From the IMG/VR virus record IMGVR_UViG_3300031788_000018, positions 1 through 56,313 of that record: a stretch of 56,313 bases of DNA, one strand, 5' to 3'. The notes beneath the pieces are model-generated. The model made no database searches. It had not been told where the DNA came from and saw only the letters and a program-made list of their open reading frames with translations. A program made the translations under genes and the position numbers. Every line of letters begins with the position of its first letter. Within the stretch, counting starts at the first letter, position 1. This DNA is from a virus (Duplodnaviria > Caudoviricetes). Below, in pieces: positions 4,448 to 56,313 of the stretch.

Positions 4448-5059
4448 ATGTATTTATTAGAAATTGAGGGTGTAGATGGATGCGGCAAGTCAACGGCAGT
4501 AAAATATGTAGTGGAACAATTGAGAATTCGAGGTTACAAAACACTAGAGACTAGAGAAGTAGGCAATATACATATACCATTCTGTTCCAAGCTTAGAGAA
4601 TTAATTCTAGATCCCGAATACAAATTATCGGGAGAAGCTATGGAGCTTGCATTCTCATGTATGCGAACAGAAAATCAGAGATTCTATAGATCTGTAGAGA
4701 ATGATTATGATTTTTGCGTAAGCGATCGTGGGTTATTAAGCCATGCTGCCTATGGTGAACATAATGCGACTAGAGAATTTATGGAGGACTTATATTTTAA
4801 TATACTTAATAAGTATACAATACCTCCCGATATGGTCCTTTTTCTAGACGTAAAACCAGAGATGGCTCTAGCTAGAAGACAGAAACGCAATGGTTTCGTA
4901 GATGCTATTGAAGCTAAAGGTCAAGAGTTCCAAGTTAAGGTATTGGATAGCTTTCATAAGTACATTGAACAACTAGACTTACCTGTGACTTTTATTGACG
5001 CAAATCAAGATCTTGATAATGTTAAACGTCAAATAGATGAGTTAATTGAGGCATTATGA
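4448..5059 (+). CDS. tmk: Thymidylate (dTMP) kinase
   Basis: IEGVDGCGKST P-loop, TREVG, SDRGLLSHAAYG, PDMVLFLDV. Confidence 0.9.
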   Translation: MYLLEIEGVDGCGKSTAVKYVVEQLRIRGYKTLETREVGNIHIPFCSKLRELILDPEYKLSGEAMELAFSCMRTENQRFYRSVENDYDFCVSDRGLLSHAAYGEHNATREFMEDLYFNILNKYTIPPDMVLFLDVKPEMALARRQKRNGFVDAIEAKGQEFQVKVLDSFHKYIEQLDLPVTFIDANQDLDNVKRQIDELIEAL

Positions 5060-5271
5060 GAAATAATATAGACAAAGATAATAAACCTCTCAATGGCGAG
5101 CATATCAAGACAGTGCACTACTATTCGGGAGTCTTCATGGGGTCCCAAGAAGTGCGTATTGCAGAATATAAAGTATGGTATTTAAATAACAAAGAATTAA
5201 CCGAACTAGAATTCAAACAATATCAACGTAATAGACAGTTCAACGACAATATCAATGAGGCTTTAAAATAA
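5056..5271 (+). CDS. Small protein with the conserved C-terminal QFNDNINEALK tail, no HREDGPA repeat
   Basis: Ends WYLNNKELTELEFKQYQRNRQFNDNINEALK; ATGA overlap with tmk. Confidence 0.8.
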   Translation: MRNNIDKDNKPLNGEHIKTVHYYSGVFMGSQEVRIAEYKVWYLNNKELTELEFKQYQRNRQFNDNINEALK

Positions 5272-5274
5272 TTA

Positions 5275-5327
5275 GGGCCGACGTTTTAAGTCAGCCCCCA
5301 ATGGAGAGTGGCGGAGCGTCCGCCGCT
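5275..5327. terminator. Two GC-rich hairpins between convergent genes, probable terminators
   Basis: gggccgac/gtcagccc (5275-5297) and agtggcgga/tccgccgct (5307-5327). Confidence 0.55.
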
Positions 5328-5344
5328 AGGATGTTCTTTTGCTA

Positions 5345-7273: not shown

Positions 7274-7335
7274 GATAGGATCTCCTTGAAAGATCAAAGT
7301 AAATTATCGCGTGTTCGCTATCCATAAGATTGGGA

Positions 7336-7364
7336 TAGACAAACGCTTGTACGTATGATATACT
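7336..7364 (+). promoter_or_regulatory. sigma70-type promoter TAGACA-17-TATACT
   Basis: tagaca aacgcttgtacgtatga tatact, then AGGAG RBS. Confidence 0.65.
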
Positions 7365-7383: not shown

Positions 7384-8025
7384 TTGAAGTTAGTAATAAT
7401 AAGCGATACTCATACTTTGCATGATCAGATTGAATTACCAGAAGGGGATCTACTAATCCACTGTGGCGATTTCTGTTCCCGTGGCTCTGTCAGAGAGTTA
7501 ATCCAGTTTAATCAATGGCTTATGAAGCAAGCTCCTAAGTTTAAACACGGAATTCTTATCTCACCAGGAAATCATGACATCTGTATAGAAGAAGATCCAG
7601 GAATGGCCAAAGCAGTATTAAGTGCCGCTAAGCTATTGATTCATGAGCAAATTGAAATTGAAGGCATCAAATTCTGGCTATCGCCCTTCCAGCCTGAATT
7701 CCACGACTGGAGTTATAACGTGCTCAGAGGTCCTGAGATCGCAAAGAAATGGGCCCAGATACCTGAAGATACCCGGGTCCTTGTAACCCATGGGCCTCCT
7801 TATGGTATCTTAGATCAAGCCTATCCAGAAGCTAATAGCGAATTCCTTGGCTGTGAAGAGCTACTTAAGAGAGTTAAACAGTTACCTAATTTAACACACC
7901 ACTTCTTTGGCCATATCCACGGATCTTTTGGACAAAATTTAATCAATAACATTACTTTTGCAAATGCCTCTCAATTGAACGAGAGATATGAAGTAACTAA
8001 TAAACCCTTGGTTTTTGACATATGA
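7384..8025 (+). CDS. Calcineurin-like metallophosphoesterase
   Basis: ISDTH, IHCGDF, PGNHD, THGPP, FGHIH motifs. Confidence 0.9.
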   Translation: MKLVIISDTHTLHDQIELPEGDLLIHCGDFCSRGSVRELIQFNQWLMKQAPKFKHGILISPGNHDICIEEDPGMAKAVLSAAKLLIHEQIEIEGIKFWLSPFQPEFHDWSYNVLRGPEIAKKWAQIPEDTRVLVTHGPPYGILDQAYPEANSEFLGCEELLKRVKQLPNLTHHFFGHIHGSFGQNLINNITFANASQLNERYEVTNKPLVFDI

Positions 8026-8318
8026 GGAATAATATTGTGATTACTATTAAAGTAGCAGATAACGGATTTATTCTATCACATACTGTAACGTTCGATAATG
8101 ATCCGCCCGATCATACTGATTATGTATATCAAAACAACGAGGAAGACGATGGCTTATCGGCAATGGCTGATATGTTAAGAACTATCAATGATCTACTTGG
8201 ACCAAGTACTTCTAGATATTCCAAAGAACGAATCTACGTCAATATAGAGCCCGGTGACAAGTACGAAGAAACTGATCGTGAATTGTTTAACAAAAGGATC
8301 GATGGAGCTTTAAAATGA
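8022..8318 (+). CDS. Hypothetical protein with the conserved tail variant (RELFNKRIDGALK)
   Basis: ATGA overlaps at both ends; C-terminal motif. Confidence 0.75.
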   Translation: MRNNIVITIKVADNGFILSHTVTFDNDPPDHTDYVYQNNEEDDGLSAMADMLRTINDLLGPSTSRYSKERIYVNIEPGDKYEETDRELFNKRIDGALK

Positions 8319-8518
8319 AAAACGGTCTACATACCGAATCGGGCTCTAAACGCTGGTACTTAAACGGCAAACTTCATCGTGAAGATGGTCCAGCTATCGA
8401 ATGGAATGACGGTGATAAACGCTGGTACTTAAATGGTATAGCATTAACCGAACTAGAAATCAGACAACTTCAACGCAATAGACAATTCAACGACAATATC
8501 AATGAGGCTCTTAAGTGA
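8315..8518 (+). CDS. HREDGPA-repeat protein with the conserved tail
   Basis: WYLNGKLHREDGPAIEW; ends QRNRQFNDNINEALK. Confidence 0.85.
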   Translation: MKNGLHTESGSKRWYLNGKLHREDGPAIEWNDGDKRWYLNGIALTELEIRQLQRNRQFNDNINEALK

Positions 8519-8760
8519 GAAATGGTCCGGTTTACAATTCTAACGGCAATGTATTCTGGTACTTAAATGGCAAACTTCATCGTGAAGAAGGCCCTGCTAT
8601 AGAATATGTTAAAGGGAATCGTAAATGGTACCTCTATGGCGTTGAATATACTGAAAATGAACATAAAACTAAAATGCGAACCATCATTTTTAATAGAAAC
8701 ATAGAAAACTCGTTAGATAACGTCGAAGACGACACGGTCATCGAATCCACTGATGAATAG
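8515..8760 (+). CDS. HREDGPA-repeat protein with a degenerate tail and acidic extension
   Basis: WYLNGKLHREEGPAIEY; RTIIFNRNIENSLD. Confidence 0.8.
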   Translation: MRNGPVYNSNGNVFWYLNGKLHREEGPAIEYVKGNRKWYLYGVEYTENEHKTKMRTIIFNRNIENSLDNVEDDTVIESTDE

Positions 8761-11438: not shown

Positions 11439-12977
11439 ATGAACCGGTCCAATGATAGAGAAGATTTAGTAGTAGTTACAAAAGATAGAGAACGTACTTA
11501 TGAAGGTACGAGATTACAACCAGCACAAATGCTGTGGCAATGCACGACTCAGAATTGCTTAAGTCCAATTAAAATTCGAAGACGTGGACAATATCAAGAT
11601 AAACTAATCTGTAATATTTGCTCCAATAGAATTAAAAGCAAAGACCCTATAGTACTCGCTAATAGGGGTAAGGCTATTTCTAAAGCTATAGCCGAGAGAG
11701 GTGATCAATGGTCTGTTACAGCTACTAAAAACATGTCTGTTCAAGCTACTAGAGATAAGATTTCAGAATCTGTGACTGATTATATAGCTGAAAATCCTGA
11801 AGCAATTGAAATTAGAAGAGAAACTGCATTAAAAAACAACGAAGTTAGCGGTTTTGGGACATCTGAGTTTGGCAAGAATATATGGGATAGCTTGACTGAT
11901 GAGGAGCGTAAAACTAGAGTAAGCAATGCTTTAACTGAACAAGCGATTTCTCTTCATGATAGACATGTTCGATTGGCTAAACTGAGATTTCCAGATTTTA
12001 CTGTGTTAACTTTCAACGATGATGGAGTGTATCAATATATGTGTCCAAAAGAACATATATTTTTACAGCGCAGCAATAATTTTATTAAACGCGGTAACTG
12101 TCCGTTTTGTACTCCTAAAAGTTCAATGGAAATTAAAGTTTATGACTTTATAAAAGATCTTCTACCTAATATAGAGCGGAACCGTCGTGTTTTATATAGG
12201 GACGATACTAAAAATGGGAACAATGCTCTAGAAATAGATTTATACGATGAAGAACGCAAATTCGGAATCGAATTACACGGCCTATATTGGCATCAAGAGG
12301 CAGAATCGGACATTTCTATAGGCGTTGACAGATCAAGTCATAGGCTTAAGGCAGAATTAGCCGACAAACATGATATTAAGTTACTGCAGTTTTTTGAAGA
12401 TGAAATTAATGAACAAACTGATATAGTAGAATCTGTAATAAAAGCTAAATTAGGAATATTTCAACATAAGATATATGCTAGAGAATGTACTTTGAAAGAA
12501 GTTGATTATAAAACGGCCAGTGCTTTTTTAAACGCAAATCACTTGCAAGGTCAATGTCGAGGCACGTTACGCCTAGGTCTATGGTATAAGGACGAATTGG
12601 TATCTCTACTTACTTTTAGAACTCCTAGAGTCAATGAAGACGAAAAAACAGTAGAGATAGCTAGATTCTGTTCCAAACTAAATTGGAGCGTAGGCTCTGG
12701 CTTCGATAGGTTACTGGCCTCAGCTGAGAAAAGTCTAAAAGCTAACGGAATAGATACGATTATGACATATGCAGATAGACGTTATAGTCACGGTGAAGTT
12801 TATGAGAGAAATAAGTTCCAATTTGTAGAATTCACAGAACCCGATATGCACTGGTGTAATAAAGAGTCAAGATTTCCTAGGCAGATCTCATGGAAAAAAG
12901 GTGACGCAGCTATGAAAGAAGAAGGGTACTGGAAAATTTATGGTACGGGAAATTCTAAATGGATAAAGAAAATATAG
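11439..12977 (+). CDS. Putative Hef-like homing endonuclease (Zn ribbons, PD-(D/E)xK/Vsr-like nuclease, C-terminal GNAT-like domain)
   Basis: CPKEH...CPFC; LEIDLY...GIELHGLYWH; LLQFFEDE; IYAREC...FLNANHLQG; EIARFCS...TYADRRYS; convergent on the capsid gene. Confidence 0.75.
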   Translation: MNRSNDREDLVVVTKDRERTYEGTRLQPAQMLWQCTTQNCLSPIKIRRRGQYQDKLICNICSNRIKSKDPIVLANRGKAISKAIAERGDQWSVTATKNMSVQATRDKISESVTDYIAENPEAIEIRRETALKNNEVSGFGTSEFGKNIWDSLTDEERKTRVSNALTEQAISLHDRHVRLAKLRFPDFTVLTFNDDGVYQYMCPKEHIFLQRSNNFIKRGNCPFCTPKSSMEIKVYDFIKDLLPNIERNRRVLYRDDTKNGNNALEIDLYDEERKFGIELHGLYWHQEAESDISIGVDRSSHRLKAELADKHDIKLLQFFEDEINEQTDIVESVIKAKLGIFQHKIYARECTLKEVDYKTASAFLNANHLQGQCRGTLRLGLWYKDELVSLLTFRTPRVNEDEKTVEIARFCSKLNWSVGSGFDRLLASAEKSLKANGIDTIMTYADRRYSHGEVYERNKFQFVEFTEPDMHWCNKESRFPRQISWKKGDAAMKEEGYWKIYGTGNSKWIKKI

Positions 12978-19394: not shown

Positions 19395-19438
19395 TATACT
19401 ATATCATTGACCTGAGACCTAAAGTGTGATATAGTATA
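19395..19438. promoter_or_regulatory. Divergent promoter region with a 12-bp perfect inverted repeat; + strand TTGACC-17-TATAGT
   Basis: TATACTATATCA-20nt-TGATATAGTATA. Confidence 0.6.
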
Positions 19439-19452
19439 ATTGAGGCTCTAAA

Positions 19453-19680
19453 ATGAAAGAAAGCTTTTTCACCGAAAACGGACTTCATATTGATGAACAC
19501 GACGTTAGAACCTGGTACTTAAACGGCGAACTTCACCGCGAAGATGGTCCAGCGGTAGAGTTTCCCGATGGTGAGACATTCTGGTGGGTAAACGGCTATC
19601 CTTACACCGAAGAAGAATTCAAACAATATCAACGTACTAAACAGTTCAACGAGAACATGAGCAAAATTCTAGAGGAATAA
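19453..19680 (+). CDS. HREDGPA-repeat protein with tail variant (QRTKQFNENMSKILEE)
   Basis: WYLNGELHREDGPAVEF. Confidence 0.85.
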   Translation: MKESFFTENGLHIDEHDVRTWYLNGELHREDGPAVEFPDGETFWWVNGYPYTEEEFKQYQRTKQFNENMSKILEE

Positions 19681-19684
19681 ATTT

Positions 19685-19831
19685 ATGCTAACAGCAATTG
19701 GCGATGTAATGAGAAAATGTCATGAATTAGGCTATACTAAAGTAGATGACGTTTTATATTCCGAAGCAGAATATGTTCAATATTTAAGAAATAAACAGTT
19801 CAATCAATCAATTGAGGAAGCTCTAAAATGA
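19685..19831 (+). CDS. 48-aa protein with the conserved tail (missing from the ORF track)
   Basis: GAGG RBS; MLTAIGDVMRKCHELGYTKVDDVLYSEAEYVQYLRNKQFNQSIEEALK; stop overlaps ATG 19828. Confidence 0.75.
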   Translation: MLTAIGDVMRKCHELGYTKVDDVLYSEAEYVQYLRNKQFNQSIEEALK

Positions 19832-20811
19832 AAAACACTCTACTCGATCTAAGAATTGGGAATCCCACATTCCTAGAAGCTTATTGGGTAAATCGTTTCG
19901 ACATCACCTTCTCTTCCGGTGAATTCATGTCGTATCCAAAGTCAGCTATAACAGCTTCATTGATTGAGCCAATTAAAGAACTACATAGGAAAATAGGCAA
20001 TGCCAAAATTACTTCAGATACTAGATTGGTAGTCGGCAATGGCGCAACTCAAATCCTACAAGCCGCTATGTATGCAATGGGTAAAACTCATAGTAGGATA
20101 TATTTTGAGCCACCACATTTCCATAAATTCCCCCATTTTGTAGATCTATCAACTTGCGGATTGAAAAATACAGATATAGACAATATTAGCTCCAAGGATT
20201 CAGAATTAGTGGAACTCATTACAATTCCAGGGAATCCAGATGGAAATTGTGAAGTTAGACCAGTGTCCATTAACTCGGCTAAGATATTTGATTTATGTTA
20301 TAATTGGCCTACTTACGTTAATGAGGTAATGGAATTTGACGAAGATATAATGGTATTCAGCTTATCTAAAGCTACTGGACACGCTGGAACTCGTATAGGT
20401 TGGGCTTTAGTCAAAGATCCTATCATAGCAGCTAATATGGCTTTTTTCGTAGAACATCAAACATCAGGCGTAAGTAAGGATTCTCAAAACAAAGCTGCTA
20501 AAGTTATTCAATATCTATTAGATCTGCCAGCTGGAATCGAATCTTGCTTTGAATTTGGCAATAAAGTATTAACAGAACGCCGCAATCAATTAGATTCTGT
20601 TTTCTTTGACACAGATATCCAATCTATTGCTAAAAACGGTATGTTTGCTTATATTAAAGGCGAAAATCTAGAGGAAAGATTACTTGAGATGGACATCTTA
20701 GGTAGTAGTGGAACTCAATTTGGTGGTGATGAATCTTGTAGGCGGTTGAATTTAGCTTGCTCTGATAAGGAATTCGAAGAACTTATCTACAGATTGAGAA
20801 AGAATCTATAA
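19828..20811 (+). CDS. PLP-dependent enzyme of the alliinase / tryptophan-aminotransferase (TAA1/TAR)-like family
   Basis: VVGNGATQIL, ELITIPGNPDG, IFDLCYNWPTY, DIMVFSLSKATGHAGTRIGWALVKD (PLP lysine motif). Confidence 0.8.
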   Translation: MKNTLLDLRIGNPTFLEAYWVNRFDITFSSGEFMSYPKSAITASLIEPIKELHRKIGNAKITSDTRLVVGNGATQILQAAMYAMGKTHSRIYFEPPHFHKFPHFVDLSTCGLKNTDIDNISSKDSELVELITIPGNPDGNCEVRPVSINSAKIFDLCYNWPTYVNEVMEFDEDIMVFSLSKATGHAGTRIGWALVKDPIIAANMAFFVEHQTSGVSKDSQNKAAKVIQYLLDLPAGIESCFEFGNKVLTERRNQLDSVFFDTDIQSIAKNGMFAYIKGENLEERLLEMDILGSSGTQFGGDESCRRLNLACSDKEFEELIYRLRKNL

Positions 20812-21129
20812 CTAGCAGGCGCTCTTACCACAGCCGCAAGTTCGTTTAGCGTTTGGATTTGAATAACTAAAACCGTGTCCATTTAAGCCGTCAGAGAAAT
20901 CTACAGTTGTTCCTTGTAGGAATTCCAGACTTTTGTAATCAACGACTAGTTTAAAGCTATCAATAAACTCTAAAGTGAAATCTTCAAGCCCGAAATCTTC
21001 ATCTGGTACTATTGCCATTTGATAATTCATTCCTGAGCATCCACCACCGATCATGGACATCCTTAGACAGTATCCCTCGAATATCATACTAGCTATTTTA
21101 TTTCCAGCTGTTTCTGTGAAATAGATCAT
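20812..21129 (-). CDS. iscA: A-type Fe-S cluster carrier (IscA/ErpA/HesB family)
   Basis: GGGCSGMNY, VVDYKSL..L.G..VDF, NPNA..TCGCGKS. Confidence 0.9.
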   Translation of the reverse strand: MIYFTETAGNKIASMIFEGYCLRMSMIGGGCSGMNYQMAIVPDEDFGLEDFTLEFIDSFKLVVDYKSLEFLQGTTVDFSDGLNGHGFSYSNPNAKRTCGCGKSAC

Positions 21130-21614
21130 TTCAAGGCCTCATTGATATTGTCGTTGAATTGTTTAGTACGTTGAAGTTGATTGAATTCTTCTTCGGTAAC
21201 TTCTTCACCGTGAAGGGACCATACTTTTTCACCATTAGAATACTCTATAGCGGGACCGTCTTCGCGATGAAGTTTGCCTTCTAAGTACCAGAAGTTAGAA
21301 CCATCGTAACGTTCAATGGCTGGACCGTCCTTGCGATGTAATTTATCGTATTGACGCCATTCTTTGTTACCATTGTCACCCCGTTCGACAGCTGGACCGT
21401 CTTCGCGGTGAAGTTTGTCGTTTAAATACCATTCTTTAGTTCCGTTAGCCCATTCGATAGCTGGACCATCTTCGCGGTGGTATTTACCATTTAAACACCA
21501 GTGTTTAGAGCCGCCGTCAGCCCATTCTCCGGCTGGACCATCTTCACGGTGAGAAACATTATTCTTGTACCAGAATTTATTACCGTATTCATCGATAGTT
21601 AATCCGTCTTTCAT
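21126..21614 (-). CDS. HREDGPA-repeat protein (5 repeats) with the conserved tail
   Basis: Five HR[EK]DGPA units; ends QRTKQFNDNINEALK. Confidence 0.9.
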   Translation of the reverse strand: MKDGLTIDEYGNKFWYKNNVSHREDGPAGEWADGGSKHWCLNGKYHREDGPAIEWANGTKEWYLNDKLHREDGPAVERGDNGNKEWRQYDKLHRKDGPAIERYDGSNFWYLEGKLHREDGPAIEYSNGEKVWSLHGEEVTEEEFNQLQRTKQFNDNINEALK

Positions 21615-21886
21615 TTTAAAGTCTCGTTAATACTGTCGTTGAACTGTTTATTTCTTAAATATCCAGAGAATTCTTCTTCGGTAAGCTCTCGGTTGTTTAA
21701 AAACCAAACATTGTTGCCATCCAGTCTGACTATAGCAGGTCCATCTTCGCGGTGAAAGCCACCGTTCAAATACCACCACAATTCTCCATCATTCCACTCA
21801 ACAGCCGGTCCGTCTTCGCGGTGAAGCTTATTGTCGAGATACCAGTATTTAGTACCTGATTTGTCAGTATGTAGACCGTTTTTCAC
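21611..21886 (-). CDS. HREDGPA-repeat protein (2 repeats) with the conserved tail
   Basis: AGGAG RBS then GTG at 21886; ends LRNKQFNDSINETLK. Confidence 0.85.
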   Translation of the reverse strand: MKNGLHTDKSGTKYWYLDNKLHREDGPAVEWNDGELWWYLNGGFHREDGPAIVRLDGNNVWFLNNRELTEEEFSGYLRNKQFNDSINETLK

Positions 21887-21887
21887 G

Positions 21888-22496
21888 CTATCTCCTATAA
21901 GATTCAAAAAGAGATTTGCGCACGCGCCTATTTGGCTTAATGTTCATGTCAGCAAGTAAACCTTCATATTTAGCAATAATTACAAACGCTTCTGCTTCTG
22001 TTAGACTTGATATGTTTTCTTCTGAAACTTCTATTTCTACAAAGCTATCACGTCTTTTCTTAGCACCGTCTGTTGTATCTATCACAGTATAGAACACCAA
22101 AGTAGCGTCATTAAATCTATATATATGACAAGCTTTCCATATGGCGAAATTAAACTTATAACCTAATGCTAATAAGGCCTCTGAAATCTCAGCTTCAGAA
22201 GTACCTGCGATTTGCCAATTGAATTCGCTGCGTACAATATTATTCTTAGCACCTTGAGGTTTCACTTTTACTGTAACTTCGCTTTTGACACCTCTAAAAG
22301 CGGGCATGCGGTGTCTTATGAAGGATTCACCTTCTCCAAGATAGTATTTATCAGTGCCTTCTACGTATAAGAACTCGTTTAAGTTGGGGAATTTCTCTAC
22401 TGCTAATTTGAATGAGAACAACTGCTCTTCATCGACATAGTACTTAGTCTCAAATTCGATGAACTTAGGCATCGTGACTCTATGTTTTTCTGTCAT
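21888..22496 (-). CDS. CYTH / triphosphate tunnel metalloenzyme (CyaB-like)
   Basis: EFETKY (ExExK), D.YY, FIRHR, VTVK, FVEIE. Confidence 0.75.
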   Translation of the reverse strand: MTEKHRVTMPKFIEFETKYYVDEEQLFSFKLAVEKFPNLNEFLYVEGTDKYYLGEGESFIRHRMPAFRGVKSEVTVKVKPQGAKNNIVRSEFNWQIAGTSEAEISEALLALGYKFNFAIWKACHIYRFNDATLVFYTVIDTTDGAKKRRDSFVEIEVSEENISSLTEAEAFVIIAKYEGLLADMNIKPNRRVRKSLFESYRR

Positions 22497-22497
22497 T

Positions 22498-23109
22498 TTA
22501 CCCTTCTTCTTCTTCACCGAGCACTTTATCGGCCAAGCCAAGCTCAACTGCTTCATGGGCATTTAGAATCGTATCAAAGCTTAGCATTTTTCGTAGTTTA
22601 GATAACTTAAAACTAGGATGTTTAGTTCGTATATGTTCCAGATACATATGTTCTAACCATAAAGCGTCTTTTCTGCCATCTTCAACCCACTTCTCTACCT
22701 CTTTAGCGTGACCGCCTAACTCAGTGCTTCCGTAATGGATCAATTGCTTAGACATTGGCGCCATAATACGGACGTCAGCGGCTTGAAGTATAACTGAACC
22801 CATACTAGCTGCAAAACCAAAGACTTTAATGGTGATGTGGGACTTACAATCTCTTATAGCATCATATATAGCTAATCCGTCCACTACGATACCGCCTAAA
22901 TTGTTCATTAGGATAGTGATTGGTTCTTGAGACATTGATTCTAATATCATTAAATTCTTAATAGTTCTTGCGGCCATTAGACCGTCTGTTCCAGATTCAC
23001 CCAGAGCTATATCGAATAGTTGTGAACCGATATAAATCGTTCGGTTAGGAATGTAGATACCATATTCGTGCATGTAGTAAGCGTCGTCTCTGTTAACACG
23101 TTTAGCCAT
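22498..23109 (-). CDS. clpP: ClpP-like serine protease
   Basis: ITILMNNLGG.V.DGLAIYDAI, GFAASMGSVILQA, LIH, A.EAVELGLADKV. Confidence 0.85.
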   Translation of the reverse strand: MAKRVNRDDAYYMHEYGIYIPNRTIYIGSQLFDIALGESGTDGLMAARTIKNLMILESMSQEPITILMNNLGGIVVDGLAIYDAIRDCKSHITIKVFGFAASMGSVILQAADVRIMAPMSKQLIHYGSTELGGHAKEVEKWVEDGRKDALWLEHMYLEHIRTKHPSFKLSKLRKMLSFDTILNAHEAVELGLADKVLGEEEEG

Positions 23110-39044: not shown

Positions 39045-39422
39045 TTATTCTCTTTTGAAGTTGACATAAATTACATTGCCAGCTTCTTGTATTTTAACCG
39101 CATCGGCATATTGACTTAGGGCTTTTTCCATAACAAGCACTACTGCTGATAAAGATCCAATGAACATGTTCTTGGCTTCATATAGCTCAGATAGCCGTTT
39201 CGTTACGGCTTGCTTTTCAATATTTGCTTTCTTATATTCTGGAATAGACGCAATAGTATCTGATTGTTTTAAGACGGACAAGTTCTCATCTAAGACATCT
39301 TTTAAAGTAACGTACATATCTATATCGTATTGTAATTTATCGATATTAGTCTGACATAGATCCGCTCTAGCTTGTGCTTCTTTTATGATTCTATCTAAAG
39401 TTTCTATAGTGTTATTGCTCAT
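39045..39422 (-). CDS. Hypothetical coiled-coil protein
   Basis: Heptad pattern. Confidence 0.65.
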   Translation of the reverse strand: MSNNTIETLDRIIKEAQARADLCQTNIDKLQYDIDMYVTLKDVLDENLSVLKQSDTIASIPEYKKANIEKQAVTKRLSELYEAKNMFIGSLSAVVLVMEKALSQYADAVKIQEAGNVIYVNFKRE

Positions 39423-39772
39423 TTGAGGGCTCCAATTATGTTCTTATTGAACTATTTATTACGAATCCATTCATTGTATTGCTGTTCAGTTACGTCATCA
39501 TGGCCGGGCTTGTATTCTATTATTTCCGGAGGCATTCCCTGCTCTACTCACAGAGCGTGATCTTCTTCGGAAACCGATTTAGCATGTATCCATTCATCAA
39601 AACCTGGATAAGGACCTTTGGTCCACCAACTTTTGCCTTGCAATATCCCATGGATCCACCATTCCATCGCACCAGTAGTCATGATAACTGCGGGATTATT
39701 TTCGCAATGTAATTTATCGTTTAAATAAACGAATTTATTACCATCTTTATCTATAATTAAACCATTCTTCAT
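39419..39772 (-). pseudogene. HREDGPA-like, tail-family gene interrupted by two in-frame stops
   Basis: One frame reads MKNGL...LHCENNPA...DHAL*VEQG...WIRNK*FNKNIIGALK*; stops TGA 39548-39550 and TAG 39452-39454. Confidence 0.75.
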
Positions 39773-41367
39773 TTTAATCTCCATTTACCATTGATACAAT
39801 TAATCATTTGACGACTTCCATTTTCATAAACTAAACACGAAGTATTAAACCAAGATGAGGCGCCTTGAGTATAGTTTAGTCTTAAGTGAGTGCTAGTCCC
39901 GACTTGCCAGAAACCTCTTAAAATCTTTGGCGTATGACTGTGTCCTACCACACAGTTCAAATGAGCCCGTTCTAGAGTATTAGCTGAACCTCTGGATCCG
40001 TTAGCTCCCTTATGTCCGTGAGTACCTAATTCTATTCCGCTTACCGTATAGGACTCGTCCATCTTGAGCCATTTGATACGCTCTGGATGTTTTAGGCCTA
40101 TTATCTTCTCTAAAGCATATTGTAGCGGACTTTCGCCATTGACCATTGCTCCGACTAATCTTGAAGCAAATTCCACATTTAAAGGATCCATAGCGAATTT
40201 CATCTTTGCTAAGAAGTGCTTGCTAAGAAAATCATGATGGTTTGAATCTACGATAACTACGGTTTTAGCTTTTTCTGTCTCTTGATTCAATATCTTAGCG
40301 CATTCACGAAGTTCTTTCTCAAGACTAAGCTTATCGCCTTTAGATAATTGAGCTTTACGTAGTATATCTTGTTCTTCATGATGATTAATTGATACGCCGC
40401 TAAAGAAGTCGTGGTGAATTCTGACCGGATTACCTAAAGCGGAAGTGACTTCATCCCAAGCTTTTGCAACTACTGGATTAGTCTCAGTTACATGATAATC
40501 GCCAATTACGAAATGCGTTGGATTCATCTTGATGATTTTTTTAGACGTATACTGAAATCCTAAATCTACGAAGCCTTTATCTATGAATTGTACTTGTCTA
40601 AAGTGATAAATCTCATCATTTTCTATTTCAACCACGACGGCGCCGAATACATGATCGCTTTCGGCAATACTAGACGATCTATCTTGATTACCGTTTTTAT
40701 CAAAGTAATTAGGCTTAGTCACAGCTCCTGTAGACATAATGGCATGAGGTAAACTGCTGTTCCCGGTCGCAATGAACTCTAGAGATTGCTTTGGACTAGC
40801 TATGATCGTAGAACCATTACGTTGTCCAAGGCGGGCTAGGCTAGTTAAAGGATTGCTATTTTTAGCAGGAACTTTAATATTACTTAAACATAAGTTAGAA
40901 TTCAGATTAAGTTTTCCGAATACCCAGTTCTCGCCTGATAGTTTTGGATCCGCATCTTTCATTACATGATCCGTCGGCATGAGTAATAGCAAAGCTTTAT
41001 TACTTTTACAGTAATTATGAAGACTAGCTAGGAAATCTACATGTGCCGGAGCGCCACTTACTGCTGAAGTGATTATAAATCGTTTGAAATTCTTAACTTG
41101 TTTTTGCAATTCATCTGAAGAATCCGATTCCCTTATAATATTGGAAATTATAGATCCCTTAATCTTAGGTGAATGGATCAAAGCTGTTTCTTTTAATTTA
41201 GTTAAACTTCCAAAATGATATCGGATACTATCTTTATTAAAACCTGAATTAAACATGTCTGTAGAACTAGGATATCTTTTATTCTTCTTTGTAAACGCTA
41301 AATAACTTTTAAGAATATTCTTTGCATCATCACTTTTAAGGAAATTCTTAGGATTAACTTTATGCAT
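39769..41367 (-). CDS. T5 A1-like metallophosphoesterase/nuclease
   Basis: RFIITSA, STGAVT, GDYH, HDFF.G..INHH, SNHH, HGH.G.NG.RG, GHSH, VGTS. Confidence 0.65.
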   Translation of the reverse strand: MHKVNPKNFLKSDDAKNILKSYLAFTKKNKRYPSSTDMFNSGFNKDSIRYHFGSLTKLKETALIHSPKIKGSIISNIIRESDSSDELQKQVKNFKRFIITSAVSGAPAHVDFLASLHNYCKSNKALLLLMPTDHVMKDADPKLSGENWVFGKLNLNSNLCLSNIKVPAKNSNPLTSLARLGQRNGSTIIASPKQSLEFIATGNSSLPHAIMSTGAVTKPNYFDKNGNQDRSSSIAESDHVFGAVVVEIENDEIYHFRQVQFIDKGFVDLGFQYTSKKIIKMNPTHFVIGDYHVTETNPVVAKAWDEVTSALGNPVRIHHDFFSGVSINHHEEQDILRKAQLSKGDKLSLEKELRECAKILNQETEKAKTVVIVDSNHHDFLSKHFLAKMKFAMDPLNVEFASRLVGAMVNGESPLQYALEKIIGLKHPERIKWLKMDESYTVSGIELGTHGHKGANGSRGSANTLERAHLNCVVGHSHTPKILRGFWQVGTSTHLRLNYTQGASSWFNTSCLVYENGSRQMINCINGKWRLK

Positions 41368-48710: not shown

Positions 48711-49060
48711 TTTGCACTCTTATACATAATTATATCATTAATGATAATTTCAACTGTTAAATCTTTCCAAAATAATCCTCTTAAGGCAGATTCTAAAGCA
48801 GCGTAACGCTTTTCGATTTGGTCATTAATAGCATCTTCAGCAATTACAAGACTATAAGTAACAATAGCATTGCTGCGAGACTCTATGCTATAAGCTATTT
48901 GTTTATGGGAAAGGTCATAGTCTATATGACACGATTGAATACCTTCAAAAAATACATATGGATACATTTTCATGTTTTTCTCATGAAGTTCTGTAATTTT
49001 ACCACTGAAAATGACCAATTTGGCCATTTCTTGTAATGATTTTGAAAGTTCTTCGCTCAT
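48707..49060 (-). CDS. Hypothetical protein
   Basis: ATGA-coupled to the upstream tail. Confidence 0.65.
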   Translation of the reverse strand: MSEELSKSLQEMAKLVIFSGKITELHEKNMKMYPYVFFEGIQSCHIDYDLSHKQIAYSIESRSNAIVTYSLVIAEDAINDQIEKRYAALESALRGLFWKDLTVEIIINDIIMYKSAK

Positions 49061-49515
49061 TTTAAAGCCTCAATTATATTCTTATTGAACTGGGCAGTAT
49101 GCTTTATATGTTCCGCCTGTTCTTCGGTACAGAGTGTATTGTTTAACCAGTAACTGCCAGTGCCGTCGATATATTCTATTGCAGGACCGTCTTCGCGGTG
49201 AAGATCACCGTGGTTATACCACAATTTAAGTCCATTAGCATTGTCAATAGCGGGGCCATTTTCTCTATGTAACTTACCTTCAAAGTACCATTGCAATACG
49301 CCAGAACCGGTGATAGCAGGACCGTCTTCGCGATGGAGCTTACCGTTTAAGAACCATTCTTCTGAACCATCATTGTACATTATCGCCGGTCCGTCTTCAC
49401 GATGGACTTCAAAATATGCTGATGAAACTAAGCCATTACTGTGCAACGGTTCTGGTTTGACAAGTTTAAACCAGGTCCGATTGCCTTCTCTGTCGTATTC
49501 AATTTTAGTCTTCAT
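49057..49515 (-). CDS. HREDGPA-repeat protein (4 repeats) with the conserved tail
   Basis: Four HRE[DN]GPA units; ends HTAQFNKNIIEALK. Confidence 0.9.
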   Translation of the reverse strand: MKTKIEYDREGNRTWFKLVKPEPLHSNGLVSSAYFEVHREDGPAIMYNDGSEEWFLNGKLHREDGPAITGSGVLQWYFEGKLHRENGPAIDNANGLKLWYNHGDLHREDGPAIEYIDGTGSYWLNNTLCTEEQAEHIKHTAQFNKNIIEALK

Positions 49516-49863: not shown

Positions 49864-50853
49864 TTAAAACCCCAGTTCCTTCATATATTGTACCAGGTCT
49901 TCTTTGGAAAGTCCAGTAGAAATATCAAAAGTATTATTAATAAAATCCGCTAATGAAGTTCCGGGCTTACGGTTTGCGGATTTAAGATGATCAGTGATTT
50001 TAGTCTTTATGGATACTTTACCCTTGAGCTTCGTTTTACTTCGTTTGATCCATTCCGAAGTTCCAATCATTTCAACAGTTGTCCTAGAATTTGGAGCAAT
50101 TTCAGGCATTTCCTCGCCTTCTCTCCAAGTAACGGACCGTACCGGTTGACACACATGGGCTGTGGAAATAAACTCTTCTTCAATAATATGCCCTAGAATG
50201 TCATCGTGCTCTACTAGCCATAGACCTTTGTCTTCATTGGCATCTGAAGCTGTCAGCCATCTGGCTGTCCCAGGGTATATGACTTTACCAAATCTCTGCC
50301 TTCTATGGATATGTCCAGAAATAATGGCGCCTACATTCAATTTATCTGGGTCAACTCCATCAGGAGCATAGAAGCCGTTCTCAAATTGAGAACCAGCGTA
50401 AGTCTGATGGGATACAAGTACTCTAGAATCATTCTCTTCTAGAATTTGATTAGCTTTATATATGAATTCATTAGAATCATGAATATAAGCAGCATATAGA
50501 AATGGCCCTAAAGCTTTAAATGTCTCTACAATATGGAGACTTTTGTTGAGTTCAGCCTTATCCTTAAACACGGACATAGCATTGCTCGTAGAGCCTTTTA
50601 GGCCAGTCATATCATGATTGCCGACTAGAGCTACGGTTTCAACTGTATCGCTTAGTTTCTTTAACCATTTAGACCAGAATTCAAGGACTTCTAATCGTAC
50701 ATTAGCGTGAGTATGAAATTGATCTCCCAATAGGACTATACGGTCTATAGATCTTTCTTGGATTAACTGGACTATGAATGATAGAAGGGAATCTAATTCC
50801 GTTAGATTCCCAGGAGTTGCGTGAGGATCTCCGATGTAGAGTACGCGAATCAT
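49864..50853 (-). CDS. sbcD: SbcD/Mre11 (T4 gp47-like) nuclease
   Basis: IGDPH, LGDQFH, VGNHD, SHQ, SGHIH, YPGT. Confidence 0.9.
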   Translation of the reverse strand: MIRVLYIGDPHATPGNLTELDSLLSFIVQLIQERSIDRIVLLGDQFHTHANVRLEVLEFWSKWLKKLSDTVETVALVGNHDMTGLKGSTSNAMSVFKDKAELNKSLHIVETFKALGPFLYAAYIHDSNEFIYKANQILEENDSRVLVSHQTYAGSQFENGFYAPDGVDPDKLNVGAIISGHIHRRQRFGKVIYPGTARWLTASDANEDKGLWLVEHDDILGHIIEEEFISTAHVCQPVRSVTWREGEEMPEIAPNSRTTVEMIGTSEWIKRSKTKLKGKVSIKTKITDHLKSANRKPGTSLADFINNTFDISTGLSKEDLVQYMKELGF

Positions 50854-51056
50854 TTTAAAGCCTCGTTAATATTGTCGTTGAATTGTTTATTGCGTTGAAG
50901 TTGTTTGAATTCTAGTTCGGTTAATGCTATACCATTTAAGTACCAAGCTTTGGCACCGTCAGCCCATTCTCCGGCTGGACCGTCTTCACGGTGGAGTTTG
51001 CCTTTTAAGAACCAGCGTTTAGTGCCATATTCGTCAATATGTAGACCGTCTTTCAT
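50850..51056 (-). CDS. HREDGPA-repeat protein with the conserved tail
   Basis: Ends QRNKQFNDNINEALK. Confidence 0.85.
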   Translation of the reverse strand: MKDGLHIDEYGTKRWFLKGKLHREDGPAGEWADGAKAWYLNGIALTELEFKQLQRNKQFNDNINEALK

Positions 51057-51268
51057 TTTAGAGCCTTTTCTATCATTTTATTAAACTGGGCCAATCTCAT
51101 AAGTTCAAGTCTTTGCTTGAACTCTTCCTCAGTTAATTGAACACCCTCTAAGTACCACCATTGAGCTCCATCCACATGAACTATAGCTGGTCCATCTTCA
51201 CAGTGCAGTTTTCCATCTTTATAAATAAACTTACAGCCGCACTGATCAAATACTACGACTTTACTCAT
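51053..51268 (-). CDS. HCEDGPA-repeat protein with the conserved tail
   Basis: Ends MRLAQFNKMIEKALK. Confidence 0.85.
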   Translation of the reverse strand: MSKVVVFDQCGCKFIYKDGKLHCEDGPAIVHVDGAQWWYLEGVQLTEEEFKQRLELMRLAQFNKMIEKALK

Positions 51269-53856: not shown

Positions 53857-53872
53857 GTTAACCCTCTAAGAT

Positions 53873-53901
53873 ATTATAGCATAATTCTAAATTAATGTCA
53901 A
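53873..53901 (-). promoter_or_regulatory. Consensus sigma70 promoter TTGACA-17-TATAAT
   Basis: Minus strand ttgaca ttaatttagaattatgc tataat. Confidence 0.8.
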
Positions 53902-55613
53902 GCTTCGCAAGCAACACACTCTTCTTTGGTCCTAGAAGCCAGGTCCCCTTGTATAACACCTTCAGATCTGCAATAATAAAGAGCTTTTAGACCTTTTTCC
54001 CATGCTGCCATATGGACTTCATGGATATACTTTGGATCGCTATTTGCAGCGAAAAAGAGATTGATTGACTGACCTTGGTCAATGAACTTCTGTCTTTGAG
54101 CCGCCTGATTGACGATGGCATGCTGATTGATTTCTCTAGCTGTTAAAAAGATCTCTTTTTGCTTTTTAGTTAAGAAATCAAAATGTTGTACACTACCCTG
54201 TTTACTATTGATAGATTTCCAAACTTCTGGAGTATTTTGATCAATAGATATCAATAGTTTTTCTAATTCAGCGTTCTTTTTAATGAAAGTACCCTTAGCG
54301 GATCGTTGGTTAAAGATGTTAGCAGCCCAAGGCTCAATTCCAGGGCTATGACCTCCTGAGATTATGGAGTTACTTACCGTAGGAGCTACGGCACATAGAT
54401 GTGTATTTCTTCTACCGAAACCTCGACACCATTCCGGTTCGCCTAATTCTTTGGCCATTATGGCTGTTTCTTTCTCAGCTCCGTCTCTGATCGTTTTGAA
54501 GATTTGAGCATTCAACATCATGGATTCGAAACTATCAAAAGGTAAACCTTTACTTTGCAATAGAGAATGCCATCCTAAAACCCCGATACCAACTGCTCGG
54601 CCTTTTATAGCTGATCTTCTGGATGCTTCGAGACCTGGTAAACCTGATGATTTGACTATGTATTCTTCTAACACGGCATCTAGGAATCTGGTAGCTATCT
54701 GTGGTAGATCTGTGTCTTTCCATTCGTCCCACCTCATCAGATTTAGTGAAGAAAGGCAGCATACAAAAGTATGTTCTGGATCGGTATACAGCATAATTTC
54801 ACTACATAGATTTGAGGTTACTACTTGTAGCTGATTATCAGTATAACACTCCGGATTTTGATTATTAACATTATCGGTAAAGAATAAGTATGGTTCGCCA
54901 GTTTCTACCCTAGTTTGAAGTATTTTTTGATAAGTTTGACGTTTTTCTACGTCTCCCTTTACCATCTCTTCCATCCAGTCATTTGTGATACAAACTGCGT
55001 GGTTTAGATTCAAACAACGCCTATTGATATCTCCGGTGGCTCTTCTGATATCCAGAAATTCGTCGATGTCCGCATGAACTACAGGTAAATACAAAGCGGC
55101 GCTGCCTCTTCTTACGTTTCCTTGGCTAATAGCTATTATTGTGCTATCAAATACTTTAGCCCAAGGAATGATGCCTTCGGAAGTTCCGTTACCGGAAATT
55201 AATGCACCTCGACCTCGAACATCACCCATATAGATGCCAACTCCGGCACCATGTTTTGACAGCATGGCTAGTTCATGTACTTTATCAAAAATTGAATCGA
55301 CACTATCATCTAAATGAAGTGTATCGCAAGAAATCGGTAATCCACGAGCAGTACCCATATTAGACATAACTGGAGAAGCTGGACATAGCCAGCCTTTCCA
55401 CATAACTTCGAAGAATCTATTTTCCCAATAGGGTGCGTTTTCACCATAATAGGATGCGGCAGCTTTTGAAACTCTGGCGTAAGCGCCACGGGGCGTTTCG
55501 CCTTTTAATAGATAACCTTTTGAAAGTGTAGAGAATCCTTCTATATCTAAGAAATCTGGGGCTTCACCTAAAGTTTTTAGTTCCATTAATTCTTCATGCT
55601 TAGTCATTTGCAT
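53898..55613 (-). CDS. nrdA: Class Ia ribonucleotide reductase, alpha subunit (no ATP cone)
   Basis: PISC, SNLCSEI, VCCLSSLNL, APTVS, IDQGQSIN, LYYCR, C-terminal CVACEA. Confidence 0.95.
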   Translation of the reverse strand: MQMTKHEELMELKTLGEAPDFLDIEGFSTLSKGYLLKGETPRGAYARVSKAAASYYGENAPYWENRFFEVMWKGWLCPASPVMSNMGTARGLPISCDTLHLDDSVDSIFDKVHELAMLSKHGAGVGIYMGDVRGRGALISGNGTSEGIIPWAKVFDSTIIAISQGNVRRGSAALYLPVVHADIDEFLDIRRATGDINRRCLNLNHAVCITNDWMEEMVKGDVEKRQTYQKILQTRVETGEPYLFFTDNVNNQNPECYTDNQLQVVTSNLCSEIMLYTDPEHTFVCCLSSLNLMRWDEWKDTDLPQIATRFLDAVLEEYIVKSSGLPGLEASRRSAIKGRAVGIGVLGWHSLLQSKGLPFDSFESMMLNAQIFKTIRDGAEKETAIMAKELGEPEWCRGFGRRNTHLCAVAPTVSNSIISGGHSPGIEPWAANIFNQRSAKGTFIKKNAELEKLLISIDQNTPEVWKSINSKQGSVQHFDFLTKKQKEIFLTAREINQHAIVNQAAQRQKFIDQGQSINLFFAANSDPKYIHEVHMAAWEKGLKALYYCRSEGVIQGDLASRTKEECVACEA

Positions 55614-55625
55614 ATCCTTAATTGG

Positions 55626-55919
55626 TCATTCTAGAGCGTCTGTGATATTTTTATTGAACTGACGTCTACGTTTTTCGGTTAACCACATCTCATGGAGATC
55701 TTTTATGGATAAATCTTTATTATTTTCCAGTAGTGTCCATATGAAATTGTGACGTTCCAACGATTCTATTTCTTCTGCTACAGCTAAAGGATCCTCCTGG
55801 TCTACAGTCTCGATATCTGCAAAGTCGCCATTAGGATTATTGAATGTGTTCGGATAATTATCGGCTATATATTTATTAAACTTATCAAACATATCATTTA
55901 GTGCATCATTCGGTTTCAT
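55626..55919 (-). CDS. Hypothetical protein with the conserved tail (RRRQFNKNITDALE), no HREDGPA repeat
   Basis: C-terminal motif. Confidence 0.75.
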   Translation of the reverse strand: MKPNDALNDMFDKFNKYIADNYPNTFNNPNGDFADIETVDQEDPLAVAEEIESLERHNFIWTLLENNKDLSIKDLHEMWLTEKRRRQFNKNITDALE

Positions 55920-56313
55920 TTAGAATATCCCCTAAATCTTTTAAACCTTCCATGATATTATCATTGAATTGACGGTTTCTAAGTTCTTGATTGTATGCTT
56001 CTTCTGTATATTCTACTCCATCTAGATAATATTCTTTAGTCCCATAGGGAGAGATGATCGCTGGACCGTCTTCACGGTGGAATTTATATAATTCTGACAT
56101 ATTATTATATGAGTCTAATTCCAAATCATATCCATACTCCCGCATGAAAGGTATTGGATCTTTAATCCATACTTTAACCCCGTGCGCATCGGTAAATGGG
56201 GTAAATTTATTTAATCTGTTCATAATAGCTTGATTTGAACCAAAGGCGGTGTTAAATATCTTGTCGTGAGCATCAACGAGCTCTGCAATGGCCGACGAAG
56301 CATCTAGATCCTG
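55906..56313 (-). CDS. HREDGPA-repeat protein with tail (LRNRQFNDNIMEGLK); 5' end lies beyond the window
   Basis: Frame stays open from the ORF-track start (56223) to the window edge. Confidence 0.75.
   Translation of the reverse strand, partial: QDLDASSAIAELVDAHDKIFNTAFGSNQAIMNRLNKFTPFTDAHGVKVWIKDPIPFMREYGYDLELDSYNNMSELYKFHREDGPAIISPYGTKEYYLDGVEYTEEAYNQELRNRQFNDNIMEGLKDLGDILNETE

Follow-up and report, generated by a model that had tools for sequence, protein, structure and literature searches.

Introduction

MORN-repeat proteins (MORN1, the junctophilins, MORN4, the N-domain of SET7/9 and members of the MORN_2/DUF6745/'YwqK-like' families) consist of stacked beta-hairpin units of roughly 23 residues. 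In several solved structures, an alpha-helix runs along the groove of the MORN sheet, and in junctophilin and MORN4/Myo3a the helix lies along the sheet. A comparable arrangement of variable and constant parts is found in the poxvirus ankyrin/PRANC families, in which many viral paralogues combine a variable repeat body with a constant short C-terminal helical module; to our knowledge, the SCF partner of PRANC has no bacterial counterpart. At the level of genes, ATGA junctions with a Shine-Dalgarno site inside the upstream ORF are common in phages.

Unknown functions in host takeover and counter-defence reside mainly in the small early proteins of phages. Uncultured phages widely encode MORN-like 'HREDGPA' proteins, to which no role has been assigned, and nothing was found in the literature on the function of the phage HREDGPA homologues. 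The stretch of DNA analysed here (the window, 56,313 nt) is about one third of the genome of a peat phage (CheckV completeness 35%), whose complete relatives are 163-170 kb long. It encodes proteins with a predicted hairpin stack like that of the MORN-repeat proteins. Unlike the latter, they are very small (48-162 aa) and phage-encoded, occur in at least 16 copies in 56 kb, and end in a lineage-specific helix motif. Their layout is, by analogy, similar to that of the poxvirus families, but the repeat type is different.

Copies of the tail in the window

An earlier note had listed 16 ORFs in the window that share a C-terminal tail, R-x-x-Q-F-N-x-x-I-x-E-A-L-K. Translations, a six-frame motif scan and inspection of the DNA confirmed the pattern at the end of each of them. 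Fifteen of these ORFs are intact and one, 39419, is decayed; in addition, one 24-nt tail remnant was found with nhmmer. The family makes up 16 of the 82 crude ORFs of the window, or about one in five. The copies, referred to below by their first coordinate, are as follows.

5056-5271, plus strand: 71 aa; terminal half repeat WYLNN and canonical tail; stop TAA, no overlapping downstream gene
8022-8318, plus strand: 98 aa; non-repeat body; weak tail FNKRIDGALK; stop overlaps the start of 8315
8315-8518, plus strand: 67 aa; one repeat unit and a half unit; canonical tail; stop overlaps the GTG start of 8515
8515-8760, plus strand: 81 aa; one repeat unit; diverged internal tail IIFNRNIENSL, then an acidic extension
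19433-19456, plus strand: 24-nt tail remnant reading ..IIEALK stop, in an intergenic leader; nhmmer E 1.1e-3
19453-19680, plus strand: 75 aa; one repeat unit; second-subtype tail RTKQFNENMSKILEE
19685-19831, plus strand: 48 aa; no repeat; canonical tail; stop overlaps the start of the alliinase-like gene 19828
21126-21614, minus strand: 162 aa; five repeat units; canonical tail; stop overlaps the start of the IscA-like gene 20812
21611-21907, minus strand: 98 aa; two repeat units and tail; stop overlaps the start of 21126
24587-24793, minus strand: 68 aa; one repeat unit and a half unit; canonical tail; stop overlaps the start of the next gene
31955-32227, minus strand: 90 aa; non-repeat body; weak tail SEFNQAISGSLKE
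39419-39784, minus strand: decayed member; truncated ORF of 78 aa (39548-39784) with one degenerate unit
49057-49515, minus strand: 152 aa; four repeat units; canonical tail; stop overlaps the next start
50850-51056, minus strand: 68 aa; one repeat unit and a half unit; canonical tail; stop overlaps the start of a metallophosphoesterase gene
51053-51268, minus strand: 71 aa; one repeat unit; tail with three extra residues inserted before the core; stop overlaps the start of 50850
55626-55919, minus strand: 97 aa; acidic non-repeat body; tail RRRQFNKNITDALE, diverged at the DNA level
55906-56313, minus strand: runs off the end of the window (full length 161 aa, protein P0041); one repeat unit; tail with a 10-residue extension

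In the decayed member, the truncated ORF is followed in order by an in-frame TGA, a TAG at the Q position, FNKNIIGALK and a stop. Upstream of the remnant at 19433-19456 lies a promoter-like match, a sigma-70-like site at 19407-19435.

The division into 11 repeat-bearing and five non-repeat ORFs was reproduced with a repeat-unit HMM. It detected 19 full HREDGPA units, distributed over 11 ORFs: 21126 has five, 49057 four, 21611 two and each of the other eight a single unit. The same HMM found no full unit in 5056, 8022, 19685, 31955 or 55626, and 5056 gave a terminal half unit only (7.6 bits). The body of 55626 had no homologue in any set searched, and neither 8022 nor 31955 had one in five related records.

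To compare the tails with chance, a 16-residue core HMM trained on nine repeat-bearing tails only was used in a six-frame search of the window; the best score in 30 trinucleotide-shuffled windows was 10.8 bits. Three copies outside the training set exceeded this maximum, namely 5056 (38.7 bits), 19685 (31.1 bits) and 55626 (19.7 bits). The core HMM did not recover 8022 (3.0 bits) or 8515 (2.1 bits), both below the shuffle maximum, and 31955 was not among its best 30 matches, the lowest of which scored 1.5 bits. Therefore, these three tails were not above chance by this measure. A longer model, A1 (33 positions, 14 training rows), for which scores on training rows are circular, gave 32.9 bits for 39419, whose match contains one TAG, and 24.6 bits for 8515, both outside its training set. 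The remaining support for 8022 and 31955 is that their F-N..I...L-K pattern has the right spacing from the stop; at the DNA level, the tail model also matched 8022 over the final 34 nt (E 9e-4).

The proposal that the tail is an independent module consequently held for 19685, 55626 and 5056 (with its half repeat), the tails of which were above chance, but not for 8022 and 31955. The occurrence of the tail on unrelated bodies was extended by a protein from a second phage contig, L011. This protein, P0051, and the window protein P0041 are alike only over a C-terminal module, the match being limited to the last 34 residues (50% identity, E 4e-9); P0051 has a non-repeat body, and its tail is of the subtype seen in 55906.

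Predicted structure of the tail and of the repeat body

In the AF2 model of 50850 (pLDDT 94.2), strands extended up to residue 45 and a helix occupied residues 47-67. In the model of 21126, the helix spanned residues 141-161, with pLDDT 94-97 across the region. For the two monomer models together, the pLDDT of the helix was 83-97 and pTM was 0.70-0.72. The tail is thus predicted to be a single C-terminal helix of about 21 residues that follows MORN-like beta-hairpins.

When the 21126 model was searched with Foldseek, the best-ranked 14 of the listed matches were all MORN-type chains (MORN1, radial spoke, junctophilin, ciliary MORN proteins and SET7/9; best E 9.6e-4, probability 1.00). The two-unit protein gave weak matches, the best with E 0.85. 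Against Pfam DUF6745 (cutoff 27 bits), 21126 passed with 30.7 bits; 49057 (23 bits) and 51053 (12.7 bits) fell below the cutoff, and the other seven scanned proteins gave no match. No window protein matched MORN_2; among the outside homologues, P0027 had a precomputed MORN_2 match and another was named 'YwqK' by its source. The DUF6745 profile, together with the tandem hairpins in an elongated modelled sheet, places the family among the MORN-like proteins.

In most of the bearers classed as non-repeat, the helix is still preceded by a strand-like stretch and T-x-E-E-[FY]; what is portable may therefore be a small hairpin-helix domain and not just a docking peptide. The confidence values of the helix fit packing in cis on its own last hairpin, and if the helix is packed in this way, its conserved face could serve folding alone. 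This would agree with a purely structural role, in which the helix packs on the last half repeat and folds or stabilises the repeat stack, and the non-repeat bearers are either very diverged members or recent neutral chimeras. The position of the helix along the sheet in the solved MORN proteins, the half repeat kept in 5056 and the chance-level tails of 8022 and 31955 speak for such a cap. Moreover, 5056 and 19685 have tails whose DNA is almost the same as in other copies; those two fusions could therefore be recent, neutral chimeras.

Conservation of the tail peptide

The earlier suggestion that selection acts on the peptide was borne out. Over 16 codons, dN/dS was 0.13 rather than near 1 in 66 pairs of 12 copies, a pairwise value that overstates the amount of evidence because tail paralogues are non-independent samples. 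At the Q, F, N and I positions of the 12 copies, pN was 0.016, and codons varied at residues that were fixed (CAG/CAA 8:4, AAC/AAT 6:6, ATC/ATT/ATA 5:4:2). As had also been proposed, the motif was kept where the DNA had diverged: the tail of 55626 retains R, Q, F, N, I, A and L. From these codon comparisons, it may be concluded that the tail is under purifying selection as a peptide and not as DNA.

The seven most conserved positions (R-4, Q-1, F0, N+1, I+4, A+7 and L+8; 3.09-4.32 bits) spanned 260 to 100 degrees on a helical wheel, and the least conserved core positions (-2, +2 and +5 with 2.0-2.5 bits, and -5 with 2.5 bits) lay at 140-220 degrees. Conservation thus lay on one helical face. 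Polar Q and N were as fixed as the hydrophobic residues on this face, which argues against a structural cap, as does the old, DNA-diverged tail of 55626, a protein without the repeat.

Relatives and distribution of the family

The family genes sit among replication and nucleotide-metabolism genes, away from structural ones. The tail/repeat family was absent from all five relatives examined, four of which are complete genomes. Neither 31955 nor 39419-39784 had a counterpart in six collinear (syntenic) relatives, and the genes flanking 39419-39784 abut each other in relatives. It appears from these absences that family genes were inserted between core genes.

The element [LYV]TEEEF, earlier described as often preceding the tail, turned out not to be special to it, since many unrelated metagenomic homologues carry it after their last repeat. 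The LTEEEF half is shared with the wider repeat family, and this generality of the helix start is in keeping with a cap. The QFN..I..ALK half was found only in the window phage and in a single related contig, where the bodies that bear it again include repeat as well as non-repeat ones, and the tail motif had no match in Pfam, PHROG or PDB. Among the 33 non-window homologues that were read, C-termini were varied and some were very short; therefore, the helix is not required by the repeats. That homologues with the same repeats have such different C-termini weighs against a structural cap, as does P0051 with its non-repeat body. As a complete explanation, the cap is regarded as possible but doubtful.

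Three tails were found in the related contig G006, on proteins of 93, 80 and 210 aa. The subtype RTK-x-FN-x-NM-x-x-IL is common to 19453 and a 210-aa five-repeat protein of contig L011. Two tail subtypes have thus been retained long-term in the related contig. A phage with about 60% polymerase identity is present in the sample from which this contig comes; G006 and the polymerase-bearing contig L004 are linked solely by their common sample.

Possible role of the helix

The reading preferred here, if tentatively, is that the tail is a selected, portable binding helix of an expanded MORN-like family and doubles as a gene-junction sequence. In this reading, the phage has expanded small MORN-like beta-hairpin repeat proteins with HREDGPA units, the genes of which have been inserted singly between conserved replication and nucleotide-metabolism genes. 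The first turns of the helix (LTEEEF) belong to the wider repeat family, and the second half, R-x-x-Q-F-N-x-x-I-x-x-A-L-K, would be an invention of this lineage. Recombination has carried the helix to a small number of ORFan bodies that lack the repeat and that have retained it. The conserved face may bind protein in trans, which would give different bodies one common handle for docking or assembly; the partner might be a common protein or the family members themselves. The tail helix would probably serve as a shared handle for binding, and the helix held in the groove of MORN sheets suggests, by analogy, one way in which the tail could bind, in cis or in trans.

A stronger version of this idea, comparable in logic to the poxvirus ANK/PRANC proteins, makes the QFN helix a universal plug that would dock in trans onto one phage or host hub, or into the helix-binding groove of the family's own MORN-like sheets. 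One assembly would then bring together at least 16 variable bodies, both repeat binders and unrelated ORFan domains, and this adaptor library would spread as a self-contained cassette with the ribosome-binding site of the downstream neighbour. Such an arrangement is considered unlikely; if there were a single docking partner, this would be a phage adaptor-library layout without a described precedent. In either form, a short selected helix that is present on unrelated bodies too defines one system and offers a concrete experimental handle, a single peptide.

The likeness to PRANC proteins, SspB-type adaptors and the T4 capsid-targeting sequence that had been drawn in the earlier note proved to be an analogy only, with no defining feature found. 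No Pfam match to a PRANC/F-box-like domain was obtained (10 whole proteins at E up to 1; 15 tails at E up to 10). SspB gave no Pfam match either, and the window bodies are MORN-like. None of the 15 tails matched SHOCT (PF09851) at E up to 10, the only match being that of the whole 31955 protein (E 0.52; 10.6 bits, cutoff 27).

It is very improbable that the tail is an addressing or turnover signal that sends cargo to one destination, such as the capsid, or marks it for a protease as a C-terminal degron. A C-terminal tail common to unrelated small proteins would suit such a signal, head and protease-like genes are also encoded in the window, and the I-x-E triplet of many tails resembles the cleavage preference of T4-type prohead proteases. 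However, the T4 capsid-targeting sequence is an N-terminal peptide removed by the prohead protease, whereas the module is C-terminal in all 16 copies, and the family genes lie among replication and nucleotide-metabolism genes rather than structural ones. The extreme C-terminus is not fixed, which argues against free-end recognition: unlike an ssrA-like degron, the copies end in K, E, KE, EE or KK, or extend by 10 (55906) or about 17 (8515) residues.

The last codons as a gene junction

The final tail codons, GAGGCTTTAAAATGA, have a second reading as a Shine-Dalgarno site with the start codon of the gene that follows. Within the last four or five codons (GAG GCT TTA AAA TGA) lie the Shine-Dalgarno site, a spacer and the ATG of that gene. 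Nine intact tails and the 39419 remnant have a 4-nt stop/start overlap with the next gene, and GAGG lies about 7 nt upstream of the ATG (GAGG-N7-ATGA) in most copies. The remnant at 19433-19456 provides GAGG and the ATG of 19453, the end of 39419 still provides GGAG and the ATG of 39045, and the extension of 55906 contains the ribosome-binding site and start of 55626. Five copies (5056, 8515, 19453, 31955 and 55626) have no 4-nt overlap with a downstream start, and all of them keep the F-N..I...L core.

Because the last codons double as a ribosome-binding site and start, the helix is pinned to the very C-terminus, and part of the E-A-L-K conservation is due to this second role. The status of E-A-L-K as a tail motif, claimed earlier, is confounded accordingly. 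With the junction codons inside the tail, a family gene can slot between two genes and leave translational coupling unbroken.

Stop/start overlaps of 4 nt were found in 20 genes of the window, including 11 non-family genes, six of which have a Shine-Dalgarno-like word in their last codons. Thymidylate kinase ends in ..IEAL, with the same junction logic.

Codon usage in the tail was also biased. The tail Glu codon was GAG in seven of nine copies, against 24% GAG genome-wide; TTC at F (11/12) and CAG at Q (8/12) were over-used relative to the genome. These biases would be expected if the shared 3' end were kept mainly as a gene-junction cassette and recombination homology, with the peptide as a passenger. 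The prevalence of the GAGG-N7-ATGA layout, the remnant that acts purely as a leader, the survival of the 3' end in the decayed 39419 and the junctions of the non-family genes and thymidylate kinase point the same way. Nevertheless, this explanation accounts for the last four or five codons only; upstream of these, Q, N and I are fixed as residues although their synonymous sites vary freely, and the core persists in the five copies without the overlap, with the tails of 5056 and 55626 significant. A nucleic-acid driver is therefore rated as distinctly improbable.

Within the preferred reading, in which a binding helix doubles as a junction, the dual-use last codons would show how a small gene family spreads between essential genes with expression undisturbed. 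The junction is the same 4-nt overlap as in translationally coupled genes. Unlike ordinary coupled genes, it is part of a repeated module, conserved at the protein level, that travels with the family gene, and it also occurs alone, as the leader at 19433-19456, and survives as a relic in 39419.

Tail copies and their bodies

The C-terminal pattern that the earlier note had described was present in all 16 of the ORFs that it named, here designated by their start coordinates, and 15 of them were intact. The remaining ORF had decayed:

39419-39784: family member now decayed; an in-frame TGA precedes a TAG at the Q codon

Recoding of this TAG as Q was rejected because of the earlier TGA in the same frame. 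It was also opposed by the use of TAG as the stop of 11 of the 82 crude ORFs and by the lack of any tRNA in the window.

With a repeat-unit HMM, 19 full HREDGPA units were found in the 11 ORFs that had been described as repeat-bearing. The full unit was absent from 8022, 19685, 31955 and 55626, and 5056 retained only a terminal half unit. The tail itself was modeled by a core HMM of 16 residues, trained on nine repeat-bearing tails only, with 30 shuffled windows as the control (maximum, 10.8 bits). Among the copies not used in training, 5056 scored 38.7 bits, 19685 scored 31.1 bits and 55626 scored 19.7 bits. By this model, three copies were not above chance: 8022 scored 3.0 bits, 8515 scored 2.1 bits, and 31955 was not among the matches listed. 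All three had F-N..I...L-K at the correct distance from the stop; furthermore, 8022 matched the tail end at the DNA level, and 8515 reached 24.6 bits with a longer tail model of 33 positions. The proposal that the tail is borne by bodies without the repeat held for 19685 and 55626, with 5056 keeping its half unit, and was not supported by the core HMM for 8022 and 31955. Both 5056 and 8022 started with M-R-N-N-I (5056-5070 and 8022-8036), with about 15 nt in common around an overlapping ATGA start, and no alignment between these two genes was found outside this stretch.

Selection on the tail peptide

The earlier note had named a dN/dS near 1 in the QFN part of the tail as a result that would refute its proposal. 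Over the 16 core codons, dN/dS was 0.13 in the 66 pairs of 12 strong copies, a figure that describes a pattern rather than independent trials since the copies are paralogues on one tree. The non-synonymous difference at Q, F, N and I was 0.016 among these copies, and synonymous codons were mixed (CAG/CAA, 8:4; AAC/AAT, 6:6; ATC/ATT/ATA, 5:4:2). Because of this low ratio and of fixed residues amid mixed synonymous codons, it may be concluded from the codons compared that the tail peptide is under purifying selection.

Codon choice in the 12 tails (for example, 50850-50900 and 24587-24637) was uneven: Phe was TTC in 11 of 12 and Gln was CAG in 8 of 12, compared with 52% TTC and 23% CAG in the long genes of the window. 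Common descent of the tails could account for this excess, and so could an unexplained constraint at the nucleotide level on CAGTTCAA.

The tail end and the translation start of the next gene

Most copies had the 3' end GAG GCT TTA AAA TGA. This reads as a GAGG followed, after a spacer of 7 nt, by an ATG that overlaps with the stop codon. A 4-nt overlap with the start of the next gene was found for nine intact tails and for the 39419 relic, which still gives GGAG and ATG to the conserved gene 39045. The tail Glu codon was GAG in 7 of 9 cases, versus 24% GAG genome-wide. A further match at the DNA level to the tail 3' end was located in an intergenic leader:

19433-19456: tail remnant of 24 nt, outside any ORF

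This remnant gives GAGG and ATG to family gene 19453, and a promoter-like TTGACC-17-TATAGT site lies upstream of it.

The 4-nt overlap was found for 20 genes in the window, 11 of them non-family, and in 6 of these 11 the last codons contained a Shine-Dalgarno-like word. Junctions of the tail type are general in this phage. In the unrelated thymidylate kinase gene (4424-5059), which ends in ..L-I-E-A-L-stop, encoded by TTAATTGAGGCATTATGA, the E-A-L ending is likewise dictated by the next gene, through its Shine-Dalgarno site and its start. The 3' codons also read as Shine-Dalgarno site and start, and E-A-L-K is therefore not clean evidence of peptide selection; of the conserved tail described previously, R..QFN..I stands as clean evidence, whereas E-A-L-K is confounded. 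An explanation of the shared 3' end by nucleic acid alone is improbable, as it accounts for the last codons only.

Predicted structure and possible role of the tail

AlphaFold2 models of 50850 (68 aa, one repeat unit) and 21126 (162 aa, five repeat units) had the same architecture, beta-hairpins followed by one helix. The helix comprised residues 47-67 in 50850 (mean pLDDT, 94.2; pTM, 0.72) and residues 141-161 in 21126 (pLDDT of 94-97 across the region). In a structure search with the five-repeat model, the best-ranked 14 listed matches were MORN1, radial-spoke, junctophilin, ciliary MORN and SET7/9 proteins, with a best E of 9.6e-4 against MORN proteins. The best Z for the 68-aa model against all PDB structures, 3.5, was not meaningful. 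A likeness of the tail to SHOCT was rejected after a Pfam search of the tails.

Projected on a helical wheel, R-4, Q-1, F0, N+1, I+4, A+7 and L+8, the seven positions of highest conservation, filled a single arc of 200 degrees, opposite the most variable positions. The tail is interpreted as the C-terminal helix that belongs to the family, with a selected surface on one side that is specific to this lineage. This helix has been transferred to a few other bodies, where it is retained. A protein-binding role in trans, with a shared partner or in mutual assembly, is tentatively considered the most likely. That the helix acts purely in cis, as a cap, is a doubtful alternative that ranks just below it. 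A complex prediction for 21126 and 19685 scored 0.00 with controls not run and counts neither for nor against binding. A sorting or degron signal is very unlikely because the extreme C-terminus varies among the copies. The adaptor library suggested in the earlier note is a conceivable reading, supported by no result here.

Distribution of the tail and repeats

Metagenomic homologues resembled the repeat proteins in the N-terminus and the repeats and, in many cases, in an L-T-E-E-E-F that follows the final half repeat; the QFN..ALK half was absent from them. A tail profile search covering 1.84 billion representatives gave 19 matches, of which ten were proteins of the window itself or variants nearly identical to them. 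The others comprised three new full tails (P0044, P0050 and P0051), two partial look-alikes on repeat proteins (P0052 and P0053) and four matches to the half-repeat and TEEEF part only.

P0050 and P0051 were encoded on a 25.8-kb IMG/VR contig, G006, which carried three tails, on non-canonical bodies of 93 aa and 80 aa and on a 210-aa five-repeat protein. The likeness of P0051 to P0041, the full-length protein of 55906, was confined to the last 34 residues, and an RTK-x-FN-x-NM-x-x-IL subtype was common to 19453 and the 210-aa protein. This contig represents a different genome region, having only family members and one weak match in common with the window. A polymerase 60% identical to that of the window was found on a second contig, tied to G006 by the shared sample only. 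Between two tail-bearing genes of the 25.8-kb contig, a 78-aa ORF (992-1228) contained L-T-K-E-E-W and, further on, M-K-N-G-L-I; this ORF resembles a family gene junction that has been scrambled and survives as a relic.

The earlier note had proposed a scan of related phages. In five relatives, of which four are complete genomes, neither tail nor repeat was detected with a tail model that recovers all copies in the window. A strict back-translated tail pattern had no match in IMG/VR and two in JGI metagenomes, one being a fragment of the window phage. The other, at 4966-4998 of contig L008, lay close to the C-terminal end of a bacterial enzyme ORF of 320 aa (..QQFNGNIREALK..) and was taken as chance. 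Cultured-phage matches were limited to Celeribacter phage P12053L and Agrobacterium phage Atu_ph07 (two records each) and covered the repeats only, the tail not being matched. In PHROGs, 9 of 10 proteins had no match and 19685 had a weak one (E 0.0028), PDB sequences gave only chance fragments of the tail, and ESM Atlas scores for the tail search were at most 0.77. The bodies of 8022, 55626 and 31955 had no homologue in five related records, and 55626 had none in a set of 5.8 billion proteins. In the literature searched, including PMC9238414, nothing was found on this phage repeat-protein family.

Genomic setting

The window is a phage contig of 56,313 bases, and its record was estimated by CheckV to be 35% complete. 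The products of its genes include a DNA polymerase of the family-B type, an SbcC-like nuclease subunit, the large subunit of ribonucleotide reductase, a DnaB-like helicase and a major head protein, and one gene is homing-endonuclease-like. Thymidylate kinase and two metallophosphoesterases are also encoded, as are a PLP enzyme of alliinase-like type and an IscA-like protein. The same proteins were carried by contigs of up to 137 kb. Relatives identified by polymerase (45-61% identity) included four complete genomes of 163-170 kb. The core genes from 26621 to 46744 were collinear in six relatives; these lacked counterparts of 31955 and of the 39419-39784 locus, and the genes flanking the latter abut each other there. 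Because of this arrangement, family members are, as judged by gene order, lineage-specific insertions between conserved genes.

Near-identical DNA was found in 24 peat-metagenome runs, 15 of which contained half or more of the sampled words, and no RNA run was among those listed. Long pieces from four peat DNA runs differed from the window at 0-2 places; cross-mapping also occurred, as did joints between paralogues, and no usable polymorphism was obtained. Their assembled contigs over 19400-24800 broke, joined or switched strand at family copies, and the window itself ends inside family gene 55906-56313. Family paralogues probably fragment assemblies of this phage.

The alliinase-like gene (19828-20811; Pfam Alliinase_C, E 7e-57) stands back to back with the gene for the IscA-like Fe-S assembly protein (20812-21129); this pair, unusual as auxiliary genes for a phage, lies between family genes. 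The HNH/homing-endonuclease-like gene (11439-12977; 512 aa; PHROG 559/3339, E about 1e-66) is located immediately upstream of the major head protein gene, which is convergent with it.
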